DNA of 38,640 nt from a virus (taxonomy: Duplodnaviria > Heunggongvirae > Uroviricota > Caudoviricetes): IMG/VR virus record IMGVR_UViG_2724679239_000008; one strand, 5' to 3'. This document shows, piece after piece, positions 23,189 to 37,088 of this stretch (positions are counted from its first letter, which is position 1; each line of letters begins with the position of its first letter). The notes beneath the pieces were generated by a model. It worked only from the letters and a program-made list of their open reading frames with translations. It had not been told where the DNA came from and made no database searches. The translations under genes were made by a program, and so were the position numbers.

Positions 23189-23214
23189 CTTGATCTGTAA
23201 AAGTAAAAAACCCG
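23189..23214 (-). terminator. rho-independent terminator downstream of hok
   Basis: minus-sense CCCGC-UUCG-GCGGG followed by UUUUUUACUUUU. Confidence 0.55.
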
Positions 23215-23294
23215 CCGAAGCGGGTTAGGTGCGGGTGCGTTGAGGATGCCTGACTCATCAGAGGTGGCGAGGGATTTCTCCCTCGCCTGGTCTC

Positions 23295-23450
23295 TTACTC
23301 CTCAGGTTCGTAAGCTGTGAAGACAGCGACCTCCGTCTGACCGGTTCGGATTCGTACCTCGCAGAGGTCTTTCCTCGTTACCAGTGCCGTAACAATGACG
23401 GTTAAACAGATGACGATCAGGGCGACTAACATCGCCTTTTGCTGCTTCAT
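23295..23450 (-). CDS. hok: Hok-family type I toxin
   Basis: MKQQKAMLVALIVICLTVIVTALVTRKDLCEVRIRTGQTEVAVFTAYEPEE matches Hok/Gef family pattern; AGGAG RBS 9 nt upstream. Confidence 0.8.
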   Translation of the reverse strand: MKQQKAMLVALIVICLTVIVTALVTRKDLCEVRIRTGQTEVAVFTAYEPEE

Positions 23451-23507
23451 AGCCTGCTTCTCCTTGCCTTTCGGCACGTAAGAGGCTAACCTACATGTGT
23501 TCAGCAT
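23295..23507 (-). CDS. mok: Mok-like in-frame N-terminally extended reading frame
   Basis: in-frame ATG 19 codons upstream (MLNTCRLASYVPKGKEKQA...), same arrangement I recall for mokC/hokC. Confidence 0.45.
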   Translation of the reverse strand: MLNTCRLASYVPKGKEKQAMKQQKAMLVALIVICLTVIVTALVTRKDLCEVRIRTGQTEVAVFTAYEPEE

Positions 23508-23575
23508 GGATTGAGCCTCAGATTAATGTTAAGCGTCCTGCAAGACGCGTAATGTTAACTGGGGCTTTTCTCTAT
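23500..23575 (+). ncRNA. sok: possible Sok-like antisense RNA (inferred, boundaries approximate)
   Basis: plus-strand TTGCCT (23464-23469), 17-nt spacer, TAACCT (23487-23492) opposite the mok start; imperfect hairpin 23529-23556; by analogy with hok/sok loci. Confidence 0.25.
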
Positions 23576-23877
23576 CTGCCTTTTGGTGTTCATGCCTGAG
23601 ACAGATAGCCTCAAGCACCCGCAGCGATTTTTACTTAACTCTTCTTTTCACGCAAACCGTTTTTATCCTCAACGTAAATTTTACCAATATCGCCTAACAC
23701 ATCTCCCCTGCCCTGACGATGCTTACCTCTTTACACAGCCCCCTATTTATGTATTATCTTTTACAAACAACCAGTTAAGAGCTATCGGTGGGTGAGTTCG
23801 CCCTGCGGTAGCTTTTCCTTTATACATTGCATCTATTTATGTTCTAGTATATTCCTATATGTTCAAAAGGACTTTTC

Positions 23878-28867: not shown

Positions 28868-29290
28868 TCAATGCACTACGACAGAGTCGCCGGGCGACCC
28901 ACCACCGCTGAAATGTGCTTTCCGGTAAACGGCCTGGACTGCATCATCATGCGCATCAATTGCCGTACTCAACGCTTCCTGCGCCGCCAGTAATGCACGG
29001 CGTTCCAGGGTATCGAAGATGCAGAGTCGGTGACGCAGCTCGCGCGGAAGAATTGCCAGAATCGCAGGGAGCAGTTTCTGAATTTTTTCCCTTTGCGCTT
29101 TTGTTTCACCTTTCAACCAGCGGTGATAGATGTTCTGCTGATTATTCCAGTCCTTGCCTGGTACCAGGGACAATTCGCCGCCCCCCTGGCGCAGATATTC
29201 TTCAGTAATTGCGTTAGCGACCCACGCCTGCCCTTTTTCGGCTGCCAGGGCTAACAGCACTGATTCGATGTGCTCATGCCTGATTTTCAT
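28868..29290 (-). CDS. ydaT: YdaT-like protein (Rac-type cII-position gene)
   Basis: 140-aa ORF, size and sequence pattern I associate with Rac YdaT; follows cro-like gene. Confidence 0.55.
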   Translation of the reverse strand: MKIRHEHIESVLLALAAEKGQAWVANAITEEYLRQGGGELSLVPGKDWNNQQNIYHRWLKGETKAQREKIQKLLPAILAILPRELRHRLCIFDTLERRALLAAQEALSTAIDAHDDAVQAVYRKAHFSGGGSPGDSVVVH

Positions 29291-29555
29291 GAATCAACTC
29301 CGGTGTATTTTGTGTGTTAGCCTTACATCCTACAGGTAAACCGTCGGTTGGATTCGGGTAGATATCAGGCCGGAGTTCATGAGGTGTAACCTCGAAATTC
29401 GTTACTTCAGCAACACGTAATGCTTTTTCAGGGCTGAATCTTTCATAGCCCCCCAGCACTCGACTTACATGCACCTGAGATAAACCCGTTAGCTTCCCAA
29501 ACTGTAACTGGGTGATATGTTTCTCTTTTAAATAGTCTCTTAAGTTCATAGCCAA
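29274..29555 (-). CDS. ydaS: Cro-like HTH regulator (YdaS-like)
   Basis: HTH QLQFGKLTGLSQVHVSRVLGG; divergent from repressor gene; TAATAT -10 and GAAGGT RBS upstream. Confidence 0.65.
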   Translation of the reverse strand: MAMNLRDYLKEKHITQLQFGKLTGLSQVHVSRVLGGYERFSPEKALRVAEVTNFEVTPHELRPDIYPNPTDGLPVGCKANTQNTPELIHENQA

Positions 29556-29657
29556 CCTTCTACGTTATGCCTCGAGCAAAATATTAGCCCCACTAATTTT
29601 AAAGATCAACAGCCAGACTATCTTTGATAATATTGGTAAAACAAATAAACTCTATGT
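29556..29657. promoter_or_regulatory. immunity-region divergent promoter/operator region
   Basis: 102-bp AT-rich intergenic region between back-to-back repressor and cro-like genes; candidate -35/-10 hexamers on both strands. Confidence 0.45.
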
Positions 29658-30119
29658 ATGAAAAAAACACGCGAAGTGATTGCAACTCCAGAAGCGAGCA
29701 AGAATTTAAAAGCCGCATGGAATGCAAGAAAAAAAGAGCTGAAGCTGACTCAAGAGCTGGCGGCTGAGTTGTTGGGATTCGAATCTCAAGGCACCGTTAG
29801 CCAGTATCTGAACGGCAAGATACCGGTAAATACCGACGCTGCGCTAAAATTTGCGGCTCTGTTAAAGGTAAAACCAGAGGACATTCGAGAAGACCTTAAA
29901 GACTTAATGAATTATGTAAGATCATCAGATACTTATGATGATAGTTTTTCAGGCAAAGGATGGAGACTGGTCAATGAAGAACAGGCAGAGTTACTTAACC
30001 TCTTCGAGATTCTACCTGCGTCAGAAAAAGCCAAACTCCTTAACCAGCTACGTGGACTAAACAAGCTCTACGAGGAAGCCTTCGAGAACATGCTGGCACT
30101 AAAGAAACGTAACCAGTAG
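29658..30119 (+). CDS. racR: prophage repressor, RacR-like (HTH XRE family)
   Basis: 153-aa ORF with HTH LTQELAAELLGFESQGTVSQYLNGK; divergent from cro-like gene. Confidence 0.65.
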   Translation: MKKTREVIATPEASKNLKAAWNARKKELKLTQELAAELLGFESQGTVSQYLNGKIPVNTDAALKFAALLKVKPEDIREDLKDLMNYVRSSDTYDDSFSGKGWRLVNEEQAELLNLFEILPASEKAKLLNQLRGLNKLYEEAFENMLALKKRNQ

Positions 30120-30145
30120 CCACCACTCACTACCCCATCCACAAC

Positions 30146-30175
30146 AAAAAAACCGACGTCTTAGTCGGTTTTTTT
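30146..30175. terminator. bidirectional rho-independent terminator
   Basis: A7 - CCGAC - GTCTTA - GTCGG - T7, symmetric. Confidence 0.6.
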
Positions 30176-30272
30176 GTGCCATAACTTCTGCAAATCAGCT
30201 GTATAACTAATATTTTTCCATTGAAAAAACATTTACATAGTTACTAAATCAAAAATATCATACGCCATGCTG

Positions 30273-30301
30273 TTGACTTAAAATATCCGCGTTACTAATA
30301 T
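30273..30301 (+). promoter_or_regulatory. sigma70-like promoter for the small plus-strand genes
   Basis: TTGACT (30273-30278), 17-nt spacer, TAATAT (30296-30301). Confidence 0.5.
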
Positions 30302-30368
30302 TTATATCAAGAACAGCACGGCGCTGTAGGTTTTAGTTCCGCCACCCGGCGTTAAAGGGAGAGATAAA

Positions 30369-30503
30369 ATGGTGCATTACGAAGTAGTTCAGTATTTGAT
30401 GGATTGTTACGGTATCACTTATAGCCAGGCTGTACAGGCTCTACGCAGCAACGACTGGGATCTCTGGCAGGCAGAAGCCGCTATACGCAGCAACAAGATG
30501 TGA
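30369..30503 (+). CDS. small protein (44 aa), YdaG-like by size and position
   Basis: hand translation MVHYEVVQYLMDCYGITYSQAVQALRSNDWDLWQAEAAIRSNKM; GGGAG RBS. Confidence 0.45.
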   Translation: MVHYEVVQYLMDCYGITYSQAVQALRSNDWDLWQAEAAIRSNKM

Positions 30504-30513
30504 GATTCGCAAA

Positions 30514-30669
30514 ATGCAAAAAATCGACCTCGGCAACAACGAATCCCTGGTGTGCGGCATGTTACCCAACCAGGACGGTACGTTCACCGCGATGACGTAT
30601 ACCAAAAGCAAAACATTTAAAACCGAAACTGGTGCGCGCCGATGGTTGGAGAAGCACACAGTAAGCTAA
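30514..30669 (+). CDS. small protein (51 aa), YdaF-like by size and position
   Basis: hand translation MQKIDLGNNESLVCGMLPNQDGTFTAMTYTKSKTFKTETGARRWLEKHTVS. Confidence 0.45.
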   Translation: MQKIDLGNNESLVCGMLPNQDGTFTAMTYTKSKTFKTETGARRWLEKHTVS

Positions 30670-31121
30670 CGATTAAAACGTCTACTCCTGCTGTTCCAGA
30701 ATAACTTCATAAAATGGGAGTATTTTTCGGTGACGAGATAATAAGAACAGTTTGCGCTATCACTCTGATGTTGAATGATGCCCTTCCGTTCTAATTTTTT
30801 CATAACCGGGTTACGGCAAGGAGAAGTGATAATAAGATTTCCTGTTTTAAGGAAATCTTTAAATACAGCGATTTCTTTCTCAGATAAACGAAGCAATACT
30901 CGTTGCTCTGGTAGTAATGAATAATGCTTTTGAATATGTGCTCGCAATCTTGAGAAGGAAATGGCGACCACAAAAGAAAAGGCAAAAACGATAATCTGAA
31001 ACAGCCAGGGTATTTCAGTATAAGTATTGAATGCGACAACAAACTCTTTCGGCATCAACCAGAGAGTGAGGCCAAAAATAATAATCGTGTACATAAGTCT
31101 TTCGATGTGGCTCATTAGCAA
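30666..31121 (-). CDS. sieB: superinfection exclusion protein B-like membrane protein
   Basis: 151-aa ORF with two N-terminal TM segments; position matches sieB in Rac-like early regions. Confidence 0.5.
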   Translation of the reverse strand: MLMSHIERLMYTIIIFGLTLWLMPKEFVVAFNTYTEIPWLFQIIVFAFSFVVAISFSRLRAHIQKHYSLLPEQRVLLRLSEKEIAVFKDFLKTGNLIITSPCRNPVMKKLERKGIIQHQSDSANCSYYLVTEKYSHFMKLFWNSRSRRFNR

Positions 31122-31594
31122 AAAGTTTCAACAATGGAGTAAATACATCCAACATATCAATAACTCTCGACTGTAAGGGTATTGAAATGTTAACACAAGC
31201 TCTTGCTGTAGGGGTATAGCAGAGACCACCGAAGCCCGGAGGTGGTGAAATAAAACCGGGCACAACACGAAGGCGCATTTCCGGTATCCATAAAGAGTCG
31301 GTCTTGTCTGTTAAATTTAAATGGTGGGAGTGCGCCTCCGGTTGTAAATAACGACATTGCTGTGTGTAGTCCTGGCGGCATCAGTTTTTTCTTGAAGTTT
31401 GGCTGATGTCCGCCCTTTTTAAAGTGAATTTTGTGATGCGGTGAATGCGGCTAAGCGCACGCGGAACAGTTAAAGCTAAAAACAGTGTTATGGGTGGATT
31501 CTCTGTATCCGGCGTTAATTGTTAACTGGTTAACGTCACCTGGAGGCACCAGGCACCGCATCGACAAAATTCATTTGTAAAAATGGAGATAATT

Positions 31595-31816
31595 ATGATT
31601 ACTCATCACTTCGGAACTGATGAAATACCACGTCAGTGTGTAACTCCTGGCGATTATGTTCTTCATGAAGGCCGGACATATATCGCCTCGGCAAACAATA
31701 TAAAAAAGCGAAAACTTTATATTCGTAGCCTGACCACAAAAACATGCATTTCTGACTGCATGGTTAAAGTCTTCCTCGGTAGTGATGGTTTACCTGTAAA
31801 AGCGGAGTCATGGTGA
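31595..31816 (+). CDS. kilR: KilR-like small protein (FtsZ-inhibitor family by recollection)
   Basis: 73-aa ORF from ATG 31595 with GGAGAT upstream ([40 protein letters not shown]...). Confidence 0.5.
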
Positions 31817-31986
31817 TGGATAAGAAAATAAAATGTGCTTACCACCTTTGCAAAAAAGACGTTGAAGAAAGCAAAACTATTGAAAGAATGCTTCATTTCA
31901 TGCACGGAACTTTATCAAAAGACGAACCGAGAAAATATTGCAGTGAAACTTGTGCCGAAAAAGACCAGATGGCACACGAACTTTAA
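31816..31986 (+). CDS. small zinc-binding protein (YdaE-like, 56 aa)
   Basis: hand translation [56 protein letters not shown]; start overlaps kilR stop (GTGATGG). Confidence 0.5.
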   Translation: MDKKIKCAYHLCKKDVEESKTIERMLHFMHGTLSKDEPRKYCSETCAEKDQMAHEL

Positions 31987-32060
31987 TTAACTGACTATTC
32001 GAAACTGAATTTATGCCAGCAATGGCAGGGATTCGCTCAACCTTAATTAAGGAGAAAAAC

Positions 32061-32336
32061 ATGATTACCAATTATGAAGCCACTGTTGTAACTACTGATG
32101 ACATTGTTCACGAGGTCAATCTGGACGGAAAGCGTATTGGCTACGTGATTAAAACAGAAAATAAAGAAACCCCATTCACTGTGGTTGATATCGACGGTCC
32201 ATCAGGCAACGTTAAAACACTTCACGAAGGCGTCAAAAAAATGTGCCTGGTGCACATTGGAAATAATCTGCCAGCAGAAAAAAAAGCTGAGTTTCTGGCA
32301 ACTCTGATTGCAATGAAATTAAAAGGTGAAATTTGA
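32061..32336 (+). CDS. racC: RacC-like protein (91 aa)
   Basis: start at ATG 32061 (MITNYEATVV) with AAGGAG upstream; immediately upstream of recE. Confidence 0.45.
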   Translation: MITNYEATVVTTDDIVHEVNLDGKRIGYVIKTENKETPFTVVDIDGPSGNVKTLHEGVKKMCLVHIGNNLPAEKKAEFLATLIAMKLKGEI

Positions 32337-32437
32337 AAAAAAAGAAAGCCTGCACAGTGTACAGGCCTGAGTGAAAAACCTGGGACATTTATTCATCACT
32401 CGCACTAAATTTTAATCTGAGTTGAGGTTAAAAAACA

Positions 32438-35400
32438 ATGAGCACTGACAAACAAAATTTTGCGTTACATTGCGACGCGAAAAATGAGGGCGCAAGAAAA
32501 CGCCTCGGCATCAAAGGCGGCTTCTTCTGGACAGAGGCAAAAAAACTTTCTGTTGCGGTTTCACGCTGCATTGCTGCAATGGACGATGCAGGCTACGACG
32601 AAGATGATTTTAAAAAACCTGTTCGCGTAAATTTGCCCGTTGTTGATGACCTTCCGCCAGAAGGCGTATTTGATACGGAATTCTGCAACCGTTACGAAAA
32701 AGGCGGTGAAGATGGCATTACAATGGTATTTATCGCGCCATCACACTCTGTTCAGGACAAACCAGCCAGCACTGACAACACCAACGTCAACGGCGAAGAT
32801 ATGACTGAGATTGAGGAGAATATGCTACTCCCGATTTCAGGTCAGATTCTGCCTGTTCGCTGGCTGGCACAGCACAGCAGCGAAAAACCGGTAACGCACG
32901 TTTCACGGGAAGAACTGCGCGCATTACATAACGCACAGGATGAAAAACTTCCCGCAGTTACAGCGCTGGCCATCTCAAATAAAGCAGCGCAACTCGAACC
33001 GCTGGAGATTCGCGATCTCCACAAACTGGTTCGTGACACTGACAAAGTTTTCCCTAATCCTGGTAATTCAGATCTGGGACTGATGACTGCTTTTTTCGAA
33101 GCATACCTGGGCACCGACTACACCGATCGAGGTCTGCTGACAAAAGAGTGGATGAAAGGGAATCGTGTTTCACGCATCACCCGCACGCCCTCCGGTGCTA
33201 ATGCTGGCGGCGGGAACAAAACTGATCGCGGTGAAGATTTCGTCCACGATCAGGCTTCGCTGGCACGCGATGTTGCGACTGGCATTCTGGCCCGTTCAAT
33301 GGATGTTGATATTTATAACCTTCATCCGGCACACGCTAAACGTATTGATGAAATCATCGCAGAGAATAAGCCGCCCTTTTCTGTTTTCCGTGACATATTC
33401 ACTGCTATGCCTGGGGGATTGGATTATTCCCGCGCCATCGTGGTTGCATCCGTGAAAGAAGCACCTATCGGTATTGAGGTTATTCACGCGCACGTCACTG
33501 AATATCTGAACAAGGTGCTGATTGAAACCAATCACGCCAATCCTGATCAGGAAATCGTGGATATTGCTTGCGGCCGTTCCTCAGCCCCAATGCCACAGCG
33601 TGATACAGAAGAAGGAAAACAAGGTGAAGAAAAACCACAACCATCTGGCGCAATGGCAAATGAACAGGCAACGCCTGAAACAGTGGAACCGGATACAACT
33701 GAACATCATCAGAACACGCAGTCGATGGATGCTCAGCCACAGGTAAATTCTGTTGATGCGAAATATCAGGAACTGAGGGCAGAACTCCATGAAGCCCGGA
33801 AAAACATTCCGCCCCAAAATCCTGTCGATGCAGACAAATTACTGGCTGCCTATCGCGGAGAATTTGTTGAAGGGATTAGCGACCCGAATGATCCGAAATG
33901 GGTTAAGGGGATCCAGACTCGCGATTCTGTGTACCAGCATCAGCCAGAAACGGAACAGAACGACCAGAAAGCTGAACAGAACAGCCCAAATACGCAACAA
34001 AACGAGCCAGAAACGAAACAGTCTGAGCCAGTAGTGCAACAACAGGAAACGGAGAAAGTTTGCACCGCCTGCGGTCAGGCTGGAGGAAATAGCTGCCCTG
34101 ACTGTGGTGCAGTGATGGGAGACGCAACGTATCAGGAAACCTTTAATGAAGAAAATATGGATGAATCTCAGGAAAAAGATTCGGAGAAAATGGAAGACGA
34201 TAAACATCCGCACAAGGAAAACACTGGCAACCATCCGCATCACAATTGCAGTGATGAAACTGGTGAAGCGTCAGCTCCTGTAGCAACTGAAATCATGTGG
34301 CCGTCATATTTCGAGCCTGGTCGCTATGAAAACCTCCCGAACGAGGTTTATCACGCCGCCAACGGAATAAGCAGCACGATGATGAAGAATGCCCGTATCA
34401 GTTTGATGTATTACCACGGGCGGCACATTGCCGGAACTATTCCGTGTGAAGAAAGTGATGCATTGCTACGTGGGCGGATCATTCACAGCTATGTTCTGGA
34501 AACGGATAAATTCTCTGATGAATATGCCATTCCGGTACCGGTTCCTGAAGATGTGGTTGCCACTTCTCAAGAACTGATCGCCATTATTAAAAAACACAAT
34601 GCCAGTTTGCCAGCACTGATGACGCCAGAGCAGATAAAAGAGTGGATCGAAAACTACAACAGCACTCTTATTCAGCCACTGTCGGTAAGTGCTGGAGCCG
34701 AAGAAACAGGCATTCTTTACGGCTCGCTCCCGGAGGAATTCCGGCGTATTCCAGAAGGAGAAAAACACACTGCATCAGCAATGAAAGCCTGTATTAAAGA
34801 ATACAACGCAAGCCTCCCCTCTCTACTGAAAACCAGTGGAACACGGGAGCAACTTCTGGAGCAAATTGAAACTGTAGATCCAGAACTGGCAAAAAAAGAA
34901 CGGGCTAAATCTTTGCCTTACAACATCAGTGGTACAAAAGAGCAATTAACCGAAATCGCCCGGAAAATTCGCCCGGAACTGGTAACACTGGAGGACTGGC
35001 AAAAACGCCAGCAAGAAGAAAATGCAGGAAAAACGTTTATCAGTCCAGATATGTATGAACAGGCAAAAAATATTCACGCGGCACTGCAAAACAATACTGA
35101 CGCGGCAAGACTACTCAACCACCCGGATCGCAAATCTGAAATCAGCTATTTCGGGTTTGATGAAGAAACCGGGCTGGAAATCAGGGTCCGCCCTGATATC
35201 GAAATCCGACTGCCATACGAAAGCATCTGCGCCGACGTGAAATCAGTAAGCTTCGGTTATGTGCGGCAAGAACGACTAAAAGATCGCTTACACCGTGAAA
35301 TTATTGAACGTGATTATCACCTGAGCGCCGCAATGTACTGCGATGTGGCAAACCTGGATAAATTTTTCTGGGTCTTCGTCAATAAGGATGCTGGCTATCA

Positions 35401-35584
35401 CTGGGTGGCAGTTGTGGAAGCTTCGCAGGAACTCCTTGAACTTGGTCGCCAGGAGTATCGCCGGACGCTACGCCAGATAAACGAAGCTCTGGAGACAAAC
35501 AACTGGCCAGCACCAATTACCGAAAGTTATACCGACGAATTAAACGACTTTGATCTTCGTCGTCTTGAAGCACTGAGCATCTGA
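32438..35584 (+). CDS. recE: exonuclease VIII (RecE), full length
   Basis: 1048-aa ORF; segments recognised as RecE ([76 protein letters not shown]); acidic Q/E-rich linker; C-terminal nuclease region. Confidence 0.8.
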
Positions 35585-36697: not shown

Positions 36698-36907
36698 ATG
36701 AGAGAAAAGACAATGCGATATGAAAAAGTTAAGCCATGTCCGTTTTGTGGTTGTCCATCTGTAACAGTGAAAGCCATTTCAGGGTATTACCGGGCAAAAT
36801 GCAACGGCTGTGAATCCCGAACTGGCTATGGTGGAAGTGAGAAAGAAGCCCTCGAAAGATGGAATAAACGAACCGCTGAAAATATTAATGGAGGCATCTA
36901 TGTATAA
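36698..36907 (+). CDS. lar: Lar/RalR-like restriction alleviation protein (start may be ATG 36713)
   Basis: MRYEKVKPCPFCGCPSVTVKAISGYYRAKCNGCESRTGYGGSEKEALERWNKR zinc-ribbon; position after recombination genes. Confidence 0.55.
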   Translation: MREKTMRYEKVKPCPFCGCPSVTVKAISGYYRAKCNGCESRTGYGGSEKEALERWNKRTAENINGGIYV

Positions 36908-37088
36908 AATTACCGCCACAATTGAAAAGGAAGGTGGTACTCCTACTAACTGGACAAGATATTCAAAATCTAAACTAACGAAATCAGAATGCGAAAAAAT
37001 GCTCTCAGGGAAAAAAGAAGCAGGCGTTTCCAGAGAGCAAAAAGTAAAACTGATGAATTTTAATTGCGAGAAACTTCAGTCCTGGTAA
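36900..37088 (+). CDS. small hypothetical protein (62 aa)
   Basis: ATG 36900 with GGAGG upstream (MYKITATIEKEGGTPTNW...); track ORF 36810..37088 probably starts too early. Confidence 0.4.
   Translation: MYKITATIEKEGGTPTNWTRYSKSKLTKSECEKMLSGKKEAGVSREQKVKLMNFNCEKLQSW

Follow-up and report, generated by a model that had tools for sequence, protein, structure and literature searches.

The 473-bp spacer between the divergent genes sieB and kilR of a Rac-like prophage, examined here within a window of 38,640 nucleotides (the whole stretch of viral DNA analysed), probably carries the small RNA KilS followed by a structured leader module that would be processed; on this reading, which we favour with good though incomplete confidence, the GTTAAC repeats in front of kilR are parts of an RNA hairpin, P4, and not a protein site. 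The spacer would act at the RNA level within an early-left operon (racR-type repressor, ydaG, ydaF, kilS, kilR, ydaE, racC, recE), into which sieB, along with some 80 bp from upstream of that gene, would have been inserted in reverse orientation. KilR is a host-toxic division inhibitor that is controlled by RacR, is subject to NusG/Rho-dependent silencing and takes part in an OxyS-NusG-KilR checkpoint (PMC5793797, PMC12482147). Every kilR transcript must run through the spacer RNA examined here. The result is partly corrective, in that a DNA feature resembling an operator is read as an RNA hairpin with a pseudoknot and the small RNA as the catalogued KilS. It is also modestly new, in placing the widely copied dicF-dicB/kilS-kilR leader structurally in the STnc100/PasD family, with a long closing helix that coincides with the known RNase III cut place in dicBF RNA.

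Layout of the sieB-kilR spacer

The spacer separates sieB (minus strand, 30666-31121) from kilR (plus strand, 31595-31816), whose product matches phrog_294 ‘Kil protein’ (E = 1.5e-35). The original prediction described this region as structured and free of convincing ORFs, and both statements hold. Folding gave z-scores of -3.85 for KilS (-35 kcal/mol), -4.07 for the leader (-66.6 kcal/mol) and -3.61 for the upstream part, and the only ORFs listed are short, unconserved and on the minus strand. Part of the spacer is matched by 4,755 E. coli records; among the matches listed, in which the leader segment recurs, almost all have only sieB or nothing annotated underneath and one has a hypothetical protein. 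In the K-12 RefSeq record, the sole annotation in the spacer is the ncRNA kilS. An Rfam search of 29000-33000 and of the whole window, at a permissive E-value, matched the spacer only with DicF and STnc100, and with no C4, put-like or riboswitch family. The features of the spacer are as follows.

31122..31200, minus strand: sieB-proximal part of the spacer, found only in the presence of sieB
31233..31260, plus strand: local hairpin GCCCGG/CCGGGC, which includes CCGGAGG, read from the sequence
31262..31345, plus strand: long imperfect hairpin from minimum free energy (MFE) folding and covariation, homologue of the hairpin upstream of DicF
31309..31317, plus strand: predicted extended -10 element of KilS, TGtTAAATT, read from the sequence
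31324..31420, plus strand: KilS, from K-12 annotation and alignment, positional counterpart of DicF
31344..31373, plus strand: KilS seed CAUUGCUGUGUGUAGUCC, single-stranded in the predicted fold
31374..31420, plus strand: DicF-like intrinsic terminator of KilS, with stem 31374-86/31401-14, then C and UUUUU (31416-20)
31416..31583, plus strand: structured kilR leader, a 165-nt STnc100-like ‘type II’ element, from fold and covariation
31585..31597, plus strand: kilR Shine-Dalgarno GGAG (31585-88) and start codon (31595-97), from the sequence

In prophages that lack sieB, such as that of phage 683R6 (racR-ydaG-ydaF-[spacer]-kilR), homology begins at window position 31201, and the sieB promoter is presumed to lie within 31122..31200. 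On the plus strand from ydaF to kilR we found no C-rich rut-like stretch, with GC skew either neutral or positive, and hence no location for the published Rho/NusG-dependent silencing. A weak minus-strand TTGTGT-17-TACAGT at 31198..31170 was spotted by eye only.

The segments CCGGAGG (31236-42) and CCTCCGG (31335-41), originally noted for their complementarity, are both present with 92 nt between them, but their mutual pairing is not the conserved one. By our own arithmetic about seven pairs of perfect 7-nt inverted repeats are expected in 473 nt, and 22 inverted pairs were found in 700 nt, so this repeat does not exceed chance. Comparative data assign the two segments to separate hairpins, and homologues that retain C[CT]TCCGG lack CCGGAGG. 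The local GCCCGG/CCGGGC hairpin is only partly formed in the MFE structure, where its CCGGGC arm (31255-60) pairs elsewhere, and Rac-SA53 and phiSTEC1589 either lack 31233..31260 or have other sequence in its place. CCTCCGG lies in the 3′ arm of the long hairpin, where its partner is CGAAGG (31268-73). Across 17 variants of this hairpin 98.3% of cells were paired, compared with 27-41% when partners were slid, and three pairs change on both sides. In Qin, an RNase III site in the 3′ arm of the hairpin upstream of DicF yields the 190-nt DicF, a cut position that we took from the published work (bioRxiv 10.1101/2023.04.14.536235) and transferred through alignment. By this homology, the long hairpin may be an RNase III substrate in transcripts arriving from upstream.

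The small RNA KilS

A small RNA had been offered as an alternative to a promoter and operator in the spacer. As judged by orthology this reading is right, and the RNA is already known: the spacer holds the counterpart of KilS of K-12 (b4833). This sRNA, derived from the kilR 5′ UTR and detected by RIL-seq, was verified on northern blots by Bar et al. 2021 (PMC8175672), whose listing gives 1418502 as the transcription start site (TSS) and 1418471 as an RNase E site. K-12 positions 1418405-1418502 correspond to window 31324-31420, which puts the RNA in the sieB-kilR spacer, with the orientation of kilR and some 176 nt ahead of the kilR start codon. Compared with the 98-nt K-12 sequence it has one substitution and one 1-nt indel. 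Northern probe 2 (31345-31374) matches the window exactly, and probe 1 (31391-31413) spans the sole T/C difference from K-12, at 31400. Locus, strand, length, TSS position, terminator and probe-target sequences are all shared, and nothing substantive differs in the sRNA. In immunity the prophage is a variant of the Rac-SA53 type, and downstream of KilS it has the leader version of Qin instead of that of K-12 Rac.

By alignment with K-12, KilS would have both its own TSS and a Rho-independent terminator. The K-12 TSS corresponds to window 31324, 7 nt downstream of the predicted extended -10 element (CGtTAAATT at this position in Qin), and transcription from there would end at the DicF-type terminator, which would also attenuate transcription toward the toxic kilR. 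The K-12 RNase E site maps to about 31355; cleavage near this position, comparable with the formation of 190-nt and 53-nt DicF, would shorten KilS to about 65 nt, with the seed at its 5′ end. The sequence UGUGUGUAGUC is found again in KilS-type sRNAs of other contigs. A predicted KilS-yncL duplex of -20.8 kcal/mol was equalled or bettered by 67 of 1000 shuffles, seed pairing with the kilR and sieB initiation regions was weaker (-13.6 and -15.1 kcal/mol, respectively), and the window contains no second complement of the seed.

The Rfam DicF model (RF00039) matched 31361-31415 with 37.6 bits (E = 8e-5), below its gathering score of 48. The Qin dicF locus (Faubladier 1990; Balasubramanian 2016; Ragunathan 2023) has the same order as the window, namely a DUF1391 gene, an sRNA with a GGCGG...CCGCC-U5 terminator, a leader and a division inhibitor. 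An RNase III hairpin homologous to the long hairpin precedes DicF, and the leader, about 97% identical to the Qin dicF-dicB spacer, has in Qin the RNase III site for the 72-nt DicF species. Synteny and alignments place KilS likewise inside an operon, upstream of the division inhibitor and flanked by counterparts of the RNase III hairpins. The two sRNAs differ in seed and loop sequence (UGCUGUGUGUAGUC in KilS versus UUUCUGGUGACGUUU in DicF): the DicF seeds for ftsZ, xylR and pykA are absent from KilS, whose 5′ and loop sequences cannot be aligned with DicF. KilS has its own predicted extended -10 promoter whereas DicF is reported from processing only, and the distance from hairpin to terminator is about 135 nt shorter at KilS than at Qin DicF.

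The position of KilS also invites comparison with P22 sas, a 105-nt RNA antisense to sieB that toggles translation between SieB and Esc (PMC12197685). Both are RNAs of about 100 nt that adjoin sieB on the opposite strand, and the similar size and identical relative orientation would suit a sas-like cis-antisense RNA controlling sieB translation, provided that sieB has a long 5′ UTR beginning upstream of 31420 on the minus strand. We consider such a role highly improbable. Unlike sas, KilS does not overlap the sieB start, lying 170-200 nt upstream of the start codon candidates, and the KilS module is independent of sieB, being unchanged in prophages that lack the gene. Moreover, the sole promoter-like site upstream on the minus strand is not kept in K-12 Rac, and blastn detected no similarity to P22.

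The kilR leader and the GTTAAC tandem

RNA that reads through the KilS terminator would, according to covariation, adopt an STnc100-like fold of several helices and a pseudoknot. Its parts, all on the plus strand, are as follows.

31435-43/31554-62: P1, from fold and covariation
31416-34/31564-83: P1 extension, from fold
31447-51/31457-62: P2, from fold and covariation
31511-18/31530-37: P4, from compensatory changes, with the fixed loop UUGUUAACUGG
31539-43/31549-53: P5, from fold and covariation
31467..31473: 5′ strand of the pseudoknot, CAGUUAA, which pairs with UUAACUG (31522-28) in the P4 loop (predicted -7.3 kcal/mol)
31521..31534: GTTAAC-TG-GTTAAC, of which copy 1 is P4 loop and pseudoknot strand and copy 2 is the 3′ strand of P4

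Across 26 variants of the leader, 88.9% of cells were paired compared with 31-40% when partners were slid, and 17 pairs change on both sides. P1, P2 and P5 were recovered independently by RNAalifold. For P4 and the pseudoknot, nine rows that are out of register in the MAFFT alignment dilute the formal pair counts, so cognate and non-cognate loop/J2-3 duplexes were compared instead. Cognate duplexes averaged -8.15 kcal/mol against -4.93 kcal/mol for non-cognate ones, and the cognate J2-3 partner was favoured in 9 of 9 loop families (Wilcoxon p = 0.002). The closing helix of 27-28 bp reaches 31583, which leaves 1 nt before the Shine-Dalgarno sequence of kilR. It spans 21-30 bp in 38 of the 50 type II flank combinations, its sequence comes in two unrelated forms (AAAGUGAAUUUUGU... 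and CAACAGACCUUGCAAUGC...), and the L084 copy carries a compensatory change from U-A to C-G.

The tandem GTTAAC-TG-GTTAAC (GTTAACTGGTTAAC) was correctly spotted in the original prediction, but lies at 31521-31534, 5 nt from the 31516..31529 given there, with its 3′ edge 61 nt from the kilR ATG. The window has one copy, where 100 shuffles gave an expectation of 0.00; for individual GTTAAC sites the count is 14 and the expectation 7.5. The tandem had been taken as a possible leftward early promoter and operator: in this account the spacer holds the early-left promoter, and the prophage repressor binds the repeat and controls kilR transcription. The uniqueness of the tandem palindrome in the window and its location 61-74 nt upstream of kilR fit such a role, as does a weak sigma-70-like site that includes it (TTAACA-16-GAGAAT, 31525..31498, 9/12 matches), but that site is on the minus strand. 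On the plus strand, from which kilR is transcribed, no sigma-70-like site was found in 31122-31594, overlapping the tandem or elsewhere, and better promoter candidates lie at 30232-30301, right after the gene for the 153-aa repressor at 29658-30119. As a promoter for sieB the minus-strand site was likewise rejected: K-12 Rac has sieB but not this -10, and Qin retains the -10 but has no sieB.

Comparison across prophages speaks against an operator more directly. The identical tandem stands beside three unrelated repressor types (the Rac-SA53-type repressor of the window, DicA, with 27% identity to it, and Tritos CI, with 25%) and does not vary with repressor specificity, which argues that it is not an operator. 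In K-12 Rac, the second GTTAAC is replaced by GUUGCA with compensating changes (GACUGUAA/UUGCAGUC) that preserve pairing and leave the loop unchanged. A stem that covaries around a fixed loop, within a conserved hairpin, is the signature of an RNA and not of a DNA site. We give the operator account very little weight; hairpin P4, with its loop and its 3′ strand, accounts for the ‘palindromes’, and they are no protein-binding site.

Proposed processing of the leader and its relation to STnc100

The processing steps proposed for the window are inferred by transfer from K-12 Rac or Qin. The 72-nt DicF is a product of RNase III cutting full-length dicBF RNA (PMC5069750, PMC9438474). Taking the 3′ end of the 72-nt species as given in reviews, the 53-nt DicF end plus 19 nt falls in the 5′ strand of the closing helix. 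In the window this helix would join the region of the terminator U-tract to the sequence just before the kilR Shine-Dalgarno. RNase III, by analogy, may cut it near 31434 and near 31563-66, which would release KilS (+19 nt) and a core of about 130 nt, leaving the kilR mRNA with a leader of about 30 nt. The closing helix and its removal might then set the level of KilR translation, the weakest step of the proposal; a translation effect on kilR is uncertain because the Shine-Dalgarno itself is unsequestered when the terminator hairpin forms. The N-leader of phage lambda offers a parallel: there a large stem, processed by RNase III, sits right before the Shine-Dalgarno of the first early-left gene and modulates translation. 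The kilR leader may work in a comparable way, but it has no sequence relation to that RNase III site and no nutL/N system.

The STnc100 model (RF02076) matched the leader with 39.5 bits (E = 2.5e-5 for the whole window), below its gathering score of 47, as do the type II copies L005, L008 and L038; its 3′ hairpin aligns poorly and overlaps the kilR start. The leader is a sub-threshold relative of STnc100. It shares with STnc100 and PasD a closing helix GGUG/CACC followed by GAAU, P2, a P4 loop pairing with J2/3, the invariant P5 CCNGG-AGGCA-CCNGG and the overall P1/P2/P4/P5 architecture. It differs in its P2 type (GCGGCUAAGCGCACGC) and in being an element embedded in an mRNA with a closing helix of 21-30 bp, whereas STnc100 and PasD are free-standing genes with an 8-bp helix and their own promoter and terminator. 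No plus-strand promoter-like site for the leader was found in 31420-31594. Type II copies are recognised by three marks: P2 reads GCGGCUNAGCGCACGC, the P4 loop and J2/3 form a pseudoknot that covaries, and the closing helix has 21-30 bp.

We give a less than even chance to a further reading, in which the kilR/dicB leader is an undescribed ‘type II’ branch of STnc100/PasD and, at the same time, a cis-acting, RNase III-gated cassette. Such a cassette might separate DicF/KilS-type sRNAs from the downstream message, gate the translation of early genes that are toxic to the host (kilR, dicB and those for small membrane peptides), and free a stable core RNA, about 130 nt long, that has its own function. 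The notion that the leader always precedes a toxic gene was only partly true, as some copies lie before a phrog_995 transcriptional regulator or a ydaE-like protein.

A plain long hairpin is enough for RNase III, so the conserved core (P2, P4, pseudoknot and P5) implies some further function. The core could itself be the functional unit, excised or in cis, whether as a trans-acting STnc100/PasD-like sRNA, a ligand for a protein or RNA polymerase (put-like antitermination) or a decoy, with a closing helix that merely liberates or insulates it. We think this rather unlikely, less so than the two roles dismissed above. Function has been shown for no STnc100 member (PMC12370729), and the window copy has neither promoter nor terminator of its own. 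The anatomy of put RNA is different, with about 70 nt and two stem-loops (PMC9378689), and membership of the HK022 put antiterminators was rejected: the leader, of 130-165 nt, combines a pseudoknot with four helices, and whereas put precedes the terminators that it suppresses, the leader follows the KilS terminator and therefore cannot suppress it. On the other side, classical STnc100 copies, with their 8-bp closing helices, have the same core architecture; a promoter-like TTGAC(N)-17-TAAATT (by eye) precedes many of these copies, and they form tandem arrays next to tRNA genes. For PasD and STnc100, described as sRNAs, RIL-seq targets are reported (bioRxiv 10.64898/2026.05.13.724894), and in contigs of the L005 type the element is carried upstream of a KilS-like sRNA.

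KilS and the hairpin upstream of it

No ORF in the spacer between sieB and kilR is conserved or annotated in relatives, in line with the original prediction, which had seen no convincing ORF there. Its alternative proposal of a small RNA was borne out, since the spacer carries the orthologue of K-12 KilS (b4833), verified by northern blot (PMC8175672). This ncRNA (1418405-1418502, kilR strand) is the one feature annotated in the K-12 RefSeq kilR-sieB spacer; in the alignment of the window with K-12 Rac it corresponds to 31324-31420, differing by a single substitution plus a 1-nt indel, in the hairpin loop. Bar et al. 2021 predicted KilS by RIL-seq, listed yncL as its partner and judged an independent promoter possible from published TSS data; the TSS (1418502) and the RNase E site (1418471) listed in their supplement (PMC8175672) transfer by alignment to 31324 and about 31355, respectively. 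The two northern probes that they used fall within the window KilS, probe 2 as an exact match and probe 1 spanning the sole T/C difference from K-12. An extended -10, TGtTAAATT, can be read at 31309-31317 (+), which puts it exactly 7 nt before 31324. The Qin counterpart reads CGtTAAATT, which fits the report that DicF lacks a promoter of its own (Ragunathan et al.). KilS is predicted to end in a 13+5-bp hairpin at 31374-31414 with a C-UUUUU tail, a terminator that Rfam scores as DicF-like (37.6 bits; gathering score 48). The stretch CAUUGCUGUGUGUAGUCC separates the 5′ hairpin from the terminator, and KilS-type sRNAs from several unrelated contigs also contain the motif UGUGUGUAGUC. The predicted duplex of the KilS seed stretch with the yncL 5′ UTR (-20.8 kcal/mol) is not counted as support, because 67 of 1000 shuffled seeds were as good or better. 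Earlier work has described both KilS and the DicF-type processing scheme.

CCGGAGG and CCTCCGG, which had been proposed as a complementary pair, are both present (31236-42 and 31335-41), but their mutual pairing is not conserved. The + strand MFE fold pairs 31262-31283 with 31325-31345 in a long hairpin, where the partner of CCTCCGG is CGAAGG (31268-73), and CCGGAGG can be read as part of a local hairpin, GCCCGG/CCGGGC (31233-60). The CCGGAGG segment is replaced or absent in phages Rac-SA53 and phiSTEC1589, both of which retain the long hairpin, so the long-range pairing is not the conserved one. By our own arithmetic such a 7-nt inverted repeat is within chance, with ~7 pairs expected in ~470 nt; 22 inverted pairs are listed in 700 nt. 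Qin and many IMG/VR contigs have the same long hairpin upstream of dicF, in another sequence version (ACGCGAAAGCGCACGG.../...CCGUGCGCUUCCGGUUGU). Over 17 variants, 98.3% of cells were paired, against 27-41% with slid partners, and three pairs had changed on both sides (e.g. G-C to A-U, U-A to G-C). In Qin the 190-nt DicF owes its 5′ end to RNase III (Ragunathan et al., bioRxiv 10.1101/2023.04.14.536235); from the distance of 190 nt to the terminator, measured on the window/Qin alignment, we infer that this cut falls in the 3′ arm of the long hairpin.

The GTTAAC repeat and the fold of the kilR leader

The tandem GTTAAC motif, in a region originally suggested to hold the leftward early promoter and operator, is present as GTTAACTGGTTAAC, although at 31521-31534, shifted rightward by 5 nt from the position first assigned, ending 61 nt before the kilR ATG. 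It occurs once in the window (0.00 expected by shuffling). The description of the region as structured holds, with z-scores of -3.85, -4.07 and -3.61 for three + strand segments and at most 1 of 200 shuffles folding as well. The leader between KilS and kilR is predicted to fold as follows.

Predicted elements of the kilR leader
31435-43 with 31554-62, +, helix P1
31447-51 with 31457-62, +, helix P2
31511-18 with 31530-37, +, helix P4
31519-29, +, P4 loop (UUGUUAACUGG)
31539-43 with 31549-53, +, helix P5
CAGUUAA 31467-73 with UUAACUG 31522-28, +, pseudoknot

By these coordinates the first GTTAAC forms the P4 loop and a pseudoknot strand, and the second the 3′ strand of P4. Across versions the P4 loop is fixed and the stem variable: GGCGUUAA/UUAACGUC in the window and Qin, GACUGUAA/UUGCAGUC in K-12 Rac, and GAUACCAG/CUGGUAUC and GGCGGUAA/UUAUCGUC in contigs L038 and L084, respectively. 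The pseudoknot covaries between subfamilies (GACUGACA:UGUCAGUC, GAACUGGCA:UGCCAGUUC, AAGGUUG:CAACCUU and CUGGUGU:GACACCGG). Cognate loop/J2-3 duplexes averaged -8.15 kcal/mol versus -4.93 kcal/mol for non-cognate ones, and all nine distinct loop families favoured their own partner (Wilcoxon p = 0.002). Among 26 sequences of the type II group described below, 88.9% of cells in five defined helices were paired, compared with 31-40% for slid partners, with 17 pairs changed on both sides; the covariation score was 0.297 versus 0.146 in shuffles and was reached by none of 500 shuffles. RNAalifold independently recovered P1, P2 and P5.

A search for a + strand promoter-like site across the spacer found none. 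The identical tandem GTTAAC accompanies three unrelated repressors, namely that of the window and Rac-SA53, DicA (27% identity) and Tritos CI (25% identity), and two RacR-type prophages, K-12 Rac and 683R6, have a compensated GUUGCA version. Together these observations make an operator role for the repeat very unlikely; judged by sequence comparison, the GTTAAC "palindromes" belong to an RNA hairpin with a pseudoknot. The best early-left promoter candidates lie at 30232-30301, just past the terminator that follows the repressor gene. This terminator is a bidirectional hairpin resembling STnc370 (30141-30215), and beyond it come two sigma-70-like sites (+) at 30232-30261 (10/12 matches) and 30273-30301, which are better candidates than any site in the sieB-kilR spacer. 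kilR is silenced in a NusG/Rho-dependent manner (PMC5793797, PMC12482147); no C-rich tract was found on the + strand between ydaF and kilR, so this silencing could not be placed on the sequence.

The closing helix and STnc100 relatives

The Qin dicF-dicB spacer shares about 97% identity with window 31410-31575, as do many prophage and phage sequences, Tritos and mEp460 among them; upstream of terB, P7 and D6 carry a partial relative. Rfam STnc100 (RF02076) matches 31417-31602 with 39.5 bits (E = 2.5e-5 over the whole window), against a gathering score of 47. Scanning IMG/VR with the invariant P5 motif yielded at least 120 loci, with 116 distinct elements among the matches listed. A classical group passes the Rfam gathering score, and many of its copies form tandem arrays of 3-5 beside tRNA genes. 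Arrays directly adjoining tRNA genes are seen in L015 (2265-3380), L103 (4349-5513) and L031 (342-1038), and an isrI match adjoins the copies in L103 and L047. A second group (type II), with GCGGCUNAGCGCACGC as P2, is missed by Rfam at the gathering score and includes the window element. The conserved leader core comprises P2, the pseudoknot and the P5 loop AGGCA. From sequence and predicted fold we assign the kilR/dicB leader to a divergent branch of STnc100-type structures with a long closing helix, the sole modestly new element here. No demonstrated function is reported for any STnc100 member (PMC12370729; bioRxiv 10.64898/2026.05.13.724894).

Beyond P1, 31416-31434 are predicted to pair with 31564-31583, with G31563 bulged and a small internal loop at A31421/G31577-U31578. 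The resulting closing helix of 27-28 bp runs from the terminator U-tract to 1 nt before the kilR GGAG. In classical STnc100 it measures 4-11 bp (median 8), whereas in type II it reaches 21-30 bp in 38 of 50 flank combinations. The long helix is known in two unrelated sequence versions, and that of L084 shows a U-A to C-G compensation. L038, L043 and L097 have a closing helix of wholly different sequence (21-23 bp; CAACAGACCUUGCAAUGCAGUG); very small hydrophobic ORFs of 36-46 aa lie downstream, which have no PHROG match and may encode membrane toxins.

From the full-length dicBF RNA, RNase III makes a 72-nt DicF that exceeds the terminated 53-nt form by 19 nt (PMC5069750, PMC9438474). On the Qin sequence its end falls at about L004 2454, within the 5′ strand of the closing helix, and aligns to about 31434 in the window. 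Because of this location, and with ends transferred from K-12, RNase III would cut near 31434 and near 31563-66, splitting the transcript into KilS(+19), a ~130-nt core and a kilR mRNA whose leader measures ~30 nt. When the terminator hairpin is formed, the predicted fold leaves the kilR Shine-Dalgarno free. L005-type contigs have a type II element instead of the long RNase III hairpin upstream of the KilS-like sRNA, an arrangement that fits a role as a processing cassette. The type II STnc100-like element (UGCUGUGUGUAGUC...GGCGGUACCAG next) is immediately upstream of this sRNA in L005, L007, L020 and L053.

Module exchange and gene neighbourhood

The window represents an almost complete Rac-like prophage, reversed in orientation relative to K-12.

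Genes around the spacer
29274-29555, -, cro-like gene
29658-30119, +, 153-aa repressor
30369-30503, +, ydaG
30514-30669, +, ydaF
30666-31121, -, sieB
31595-31816, +, kilR (phrog_294 match, E = 1.5e-35)
31810-31986, +, ydaE
~32061-32336, +, racC
32438-35584, +, recE-like gene, 1048 aa

Compared across contigs (L137, L190, L018, L089, L163 and L084), the sRNA, leader and downstream gene appear as freely recombining modules: DicF, leader and kilR in L137; a KilS-type sRNA/terminator, leader and dicB in L190; and either sRNA type with the leader and a phrog_995 transcriptional regulator or ydaE-like (zinc protein) gene. The sRNA terminator hairpin loop is hypervariable among these contigs. By the same kind of comparison sieB is an insertion in the spacer module, since phage 683R6 has the order racR-ydaG-ydaF-[spacer]-kilR, without sieB, and homology with the window starts at 31201. 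Relative to K-12, sieB has an extra A near 31101 (-; region 31095-31160) that frameshifts the first 16 codons, and a C-to-T change makes an in-frame ATG at 31115; translation may therefore begin 14 residues further downstream, or else the gene may be damaged.

The window and phage Rac-SA53 have the same repressor (100% identity), which is unrelated to K-12 RacR (17% identity), and the RecE-like ORF (32438-35584) has 1048 aa here versus 866 aa in K-12. A hok/sok-type locus lies at 23205-23620 (-), with Rfam sok at 23445-23620 (118.9 bits) and, next to it at 23205-23286 (-), an isrK-like match whose 31 bits do not reach the gathering score. Between recT and the integrase gene, 36906-37084 (-) matches RalA (209 bits), the antitoxin sRNA of the type I toxin-antitoxin pair RalR/RalA.
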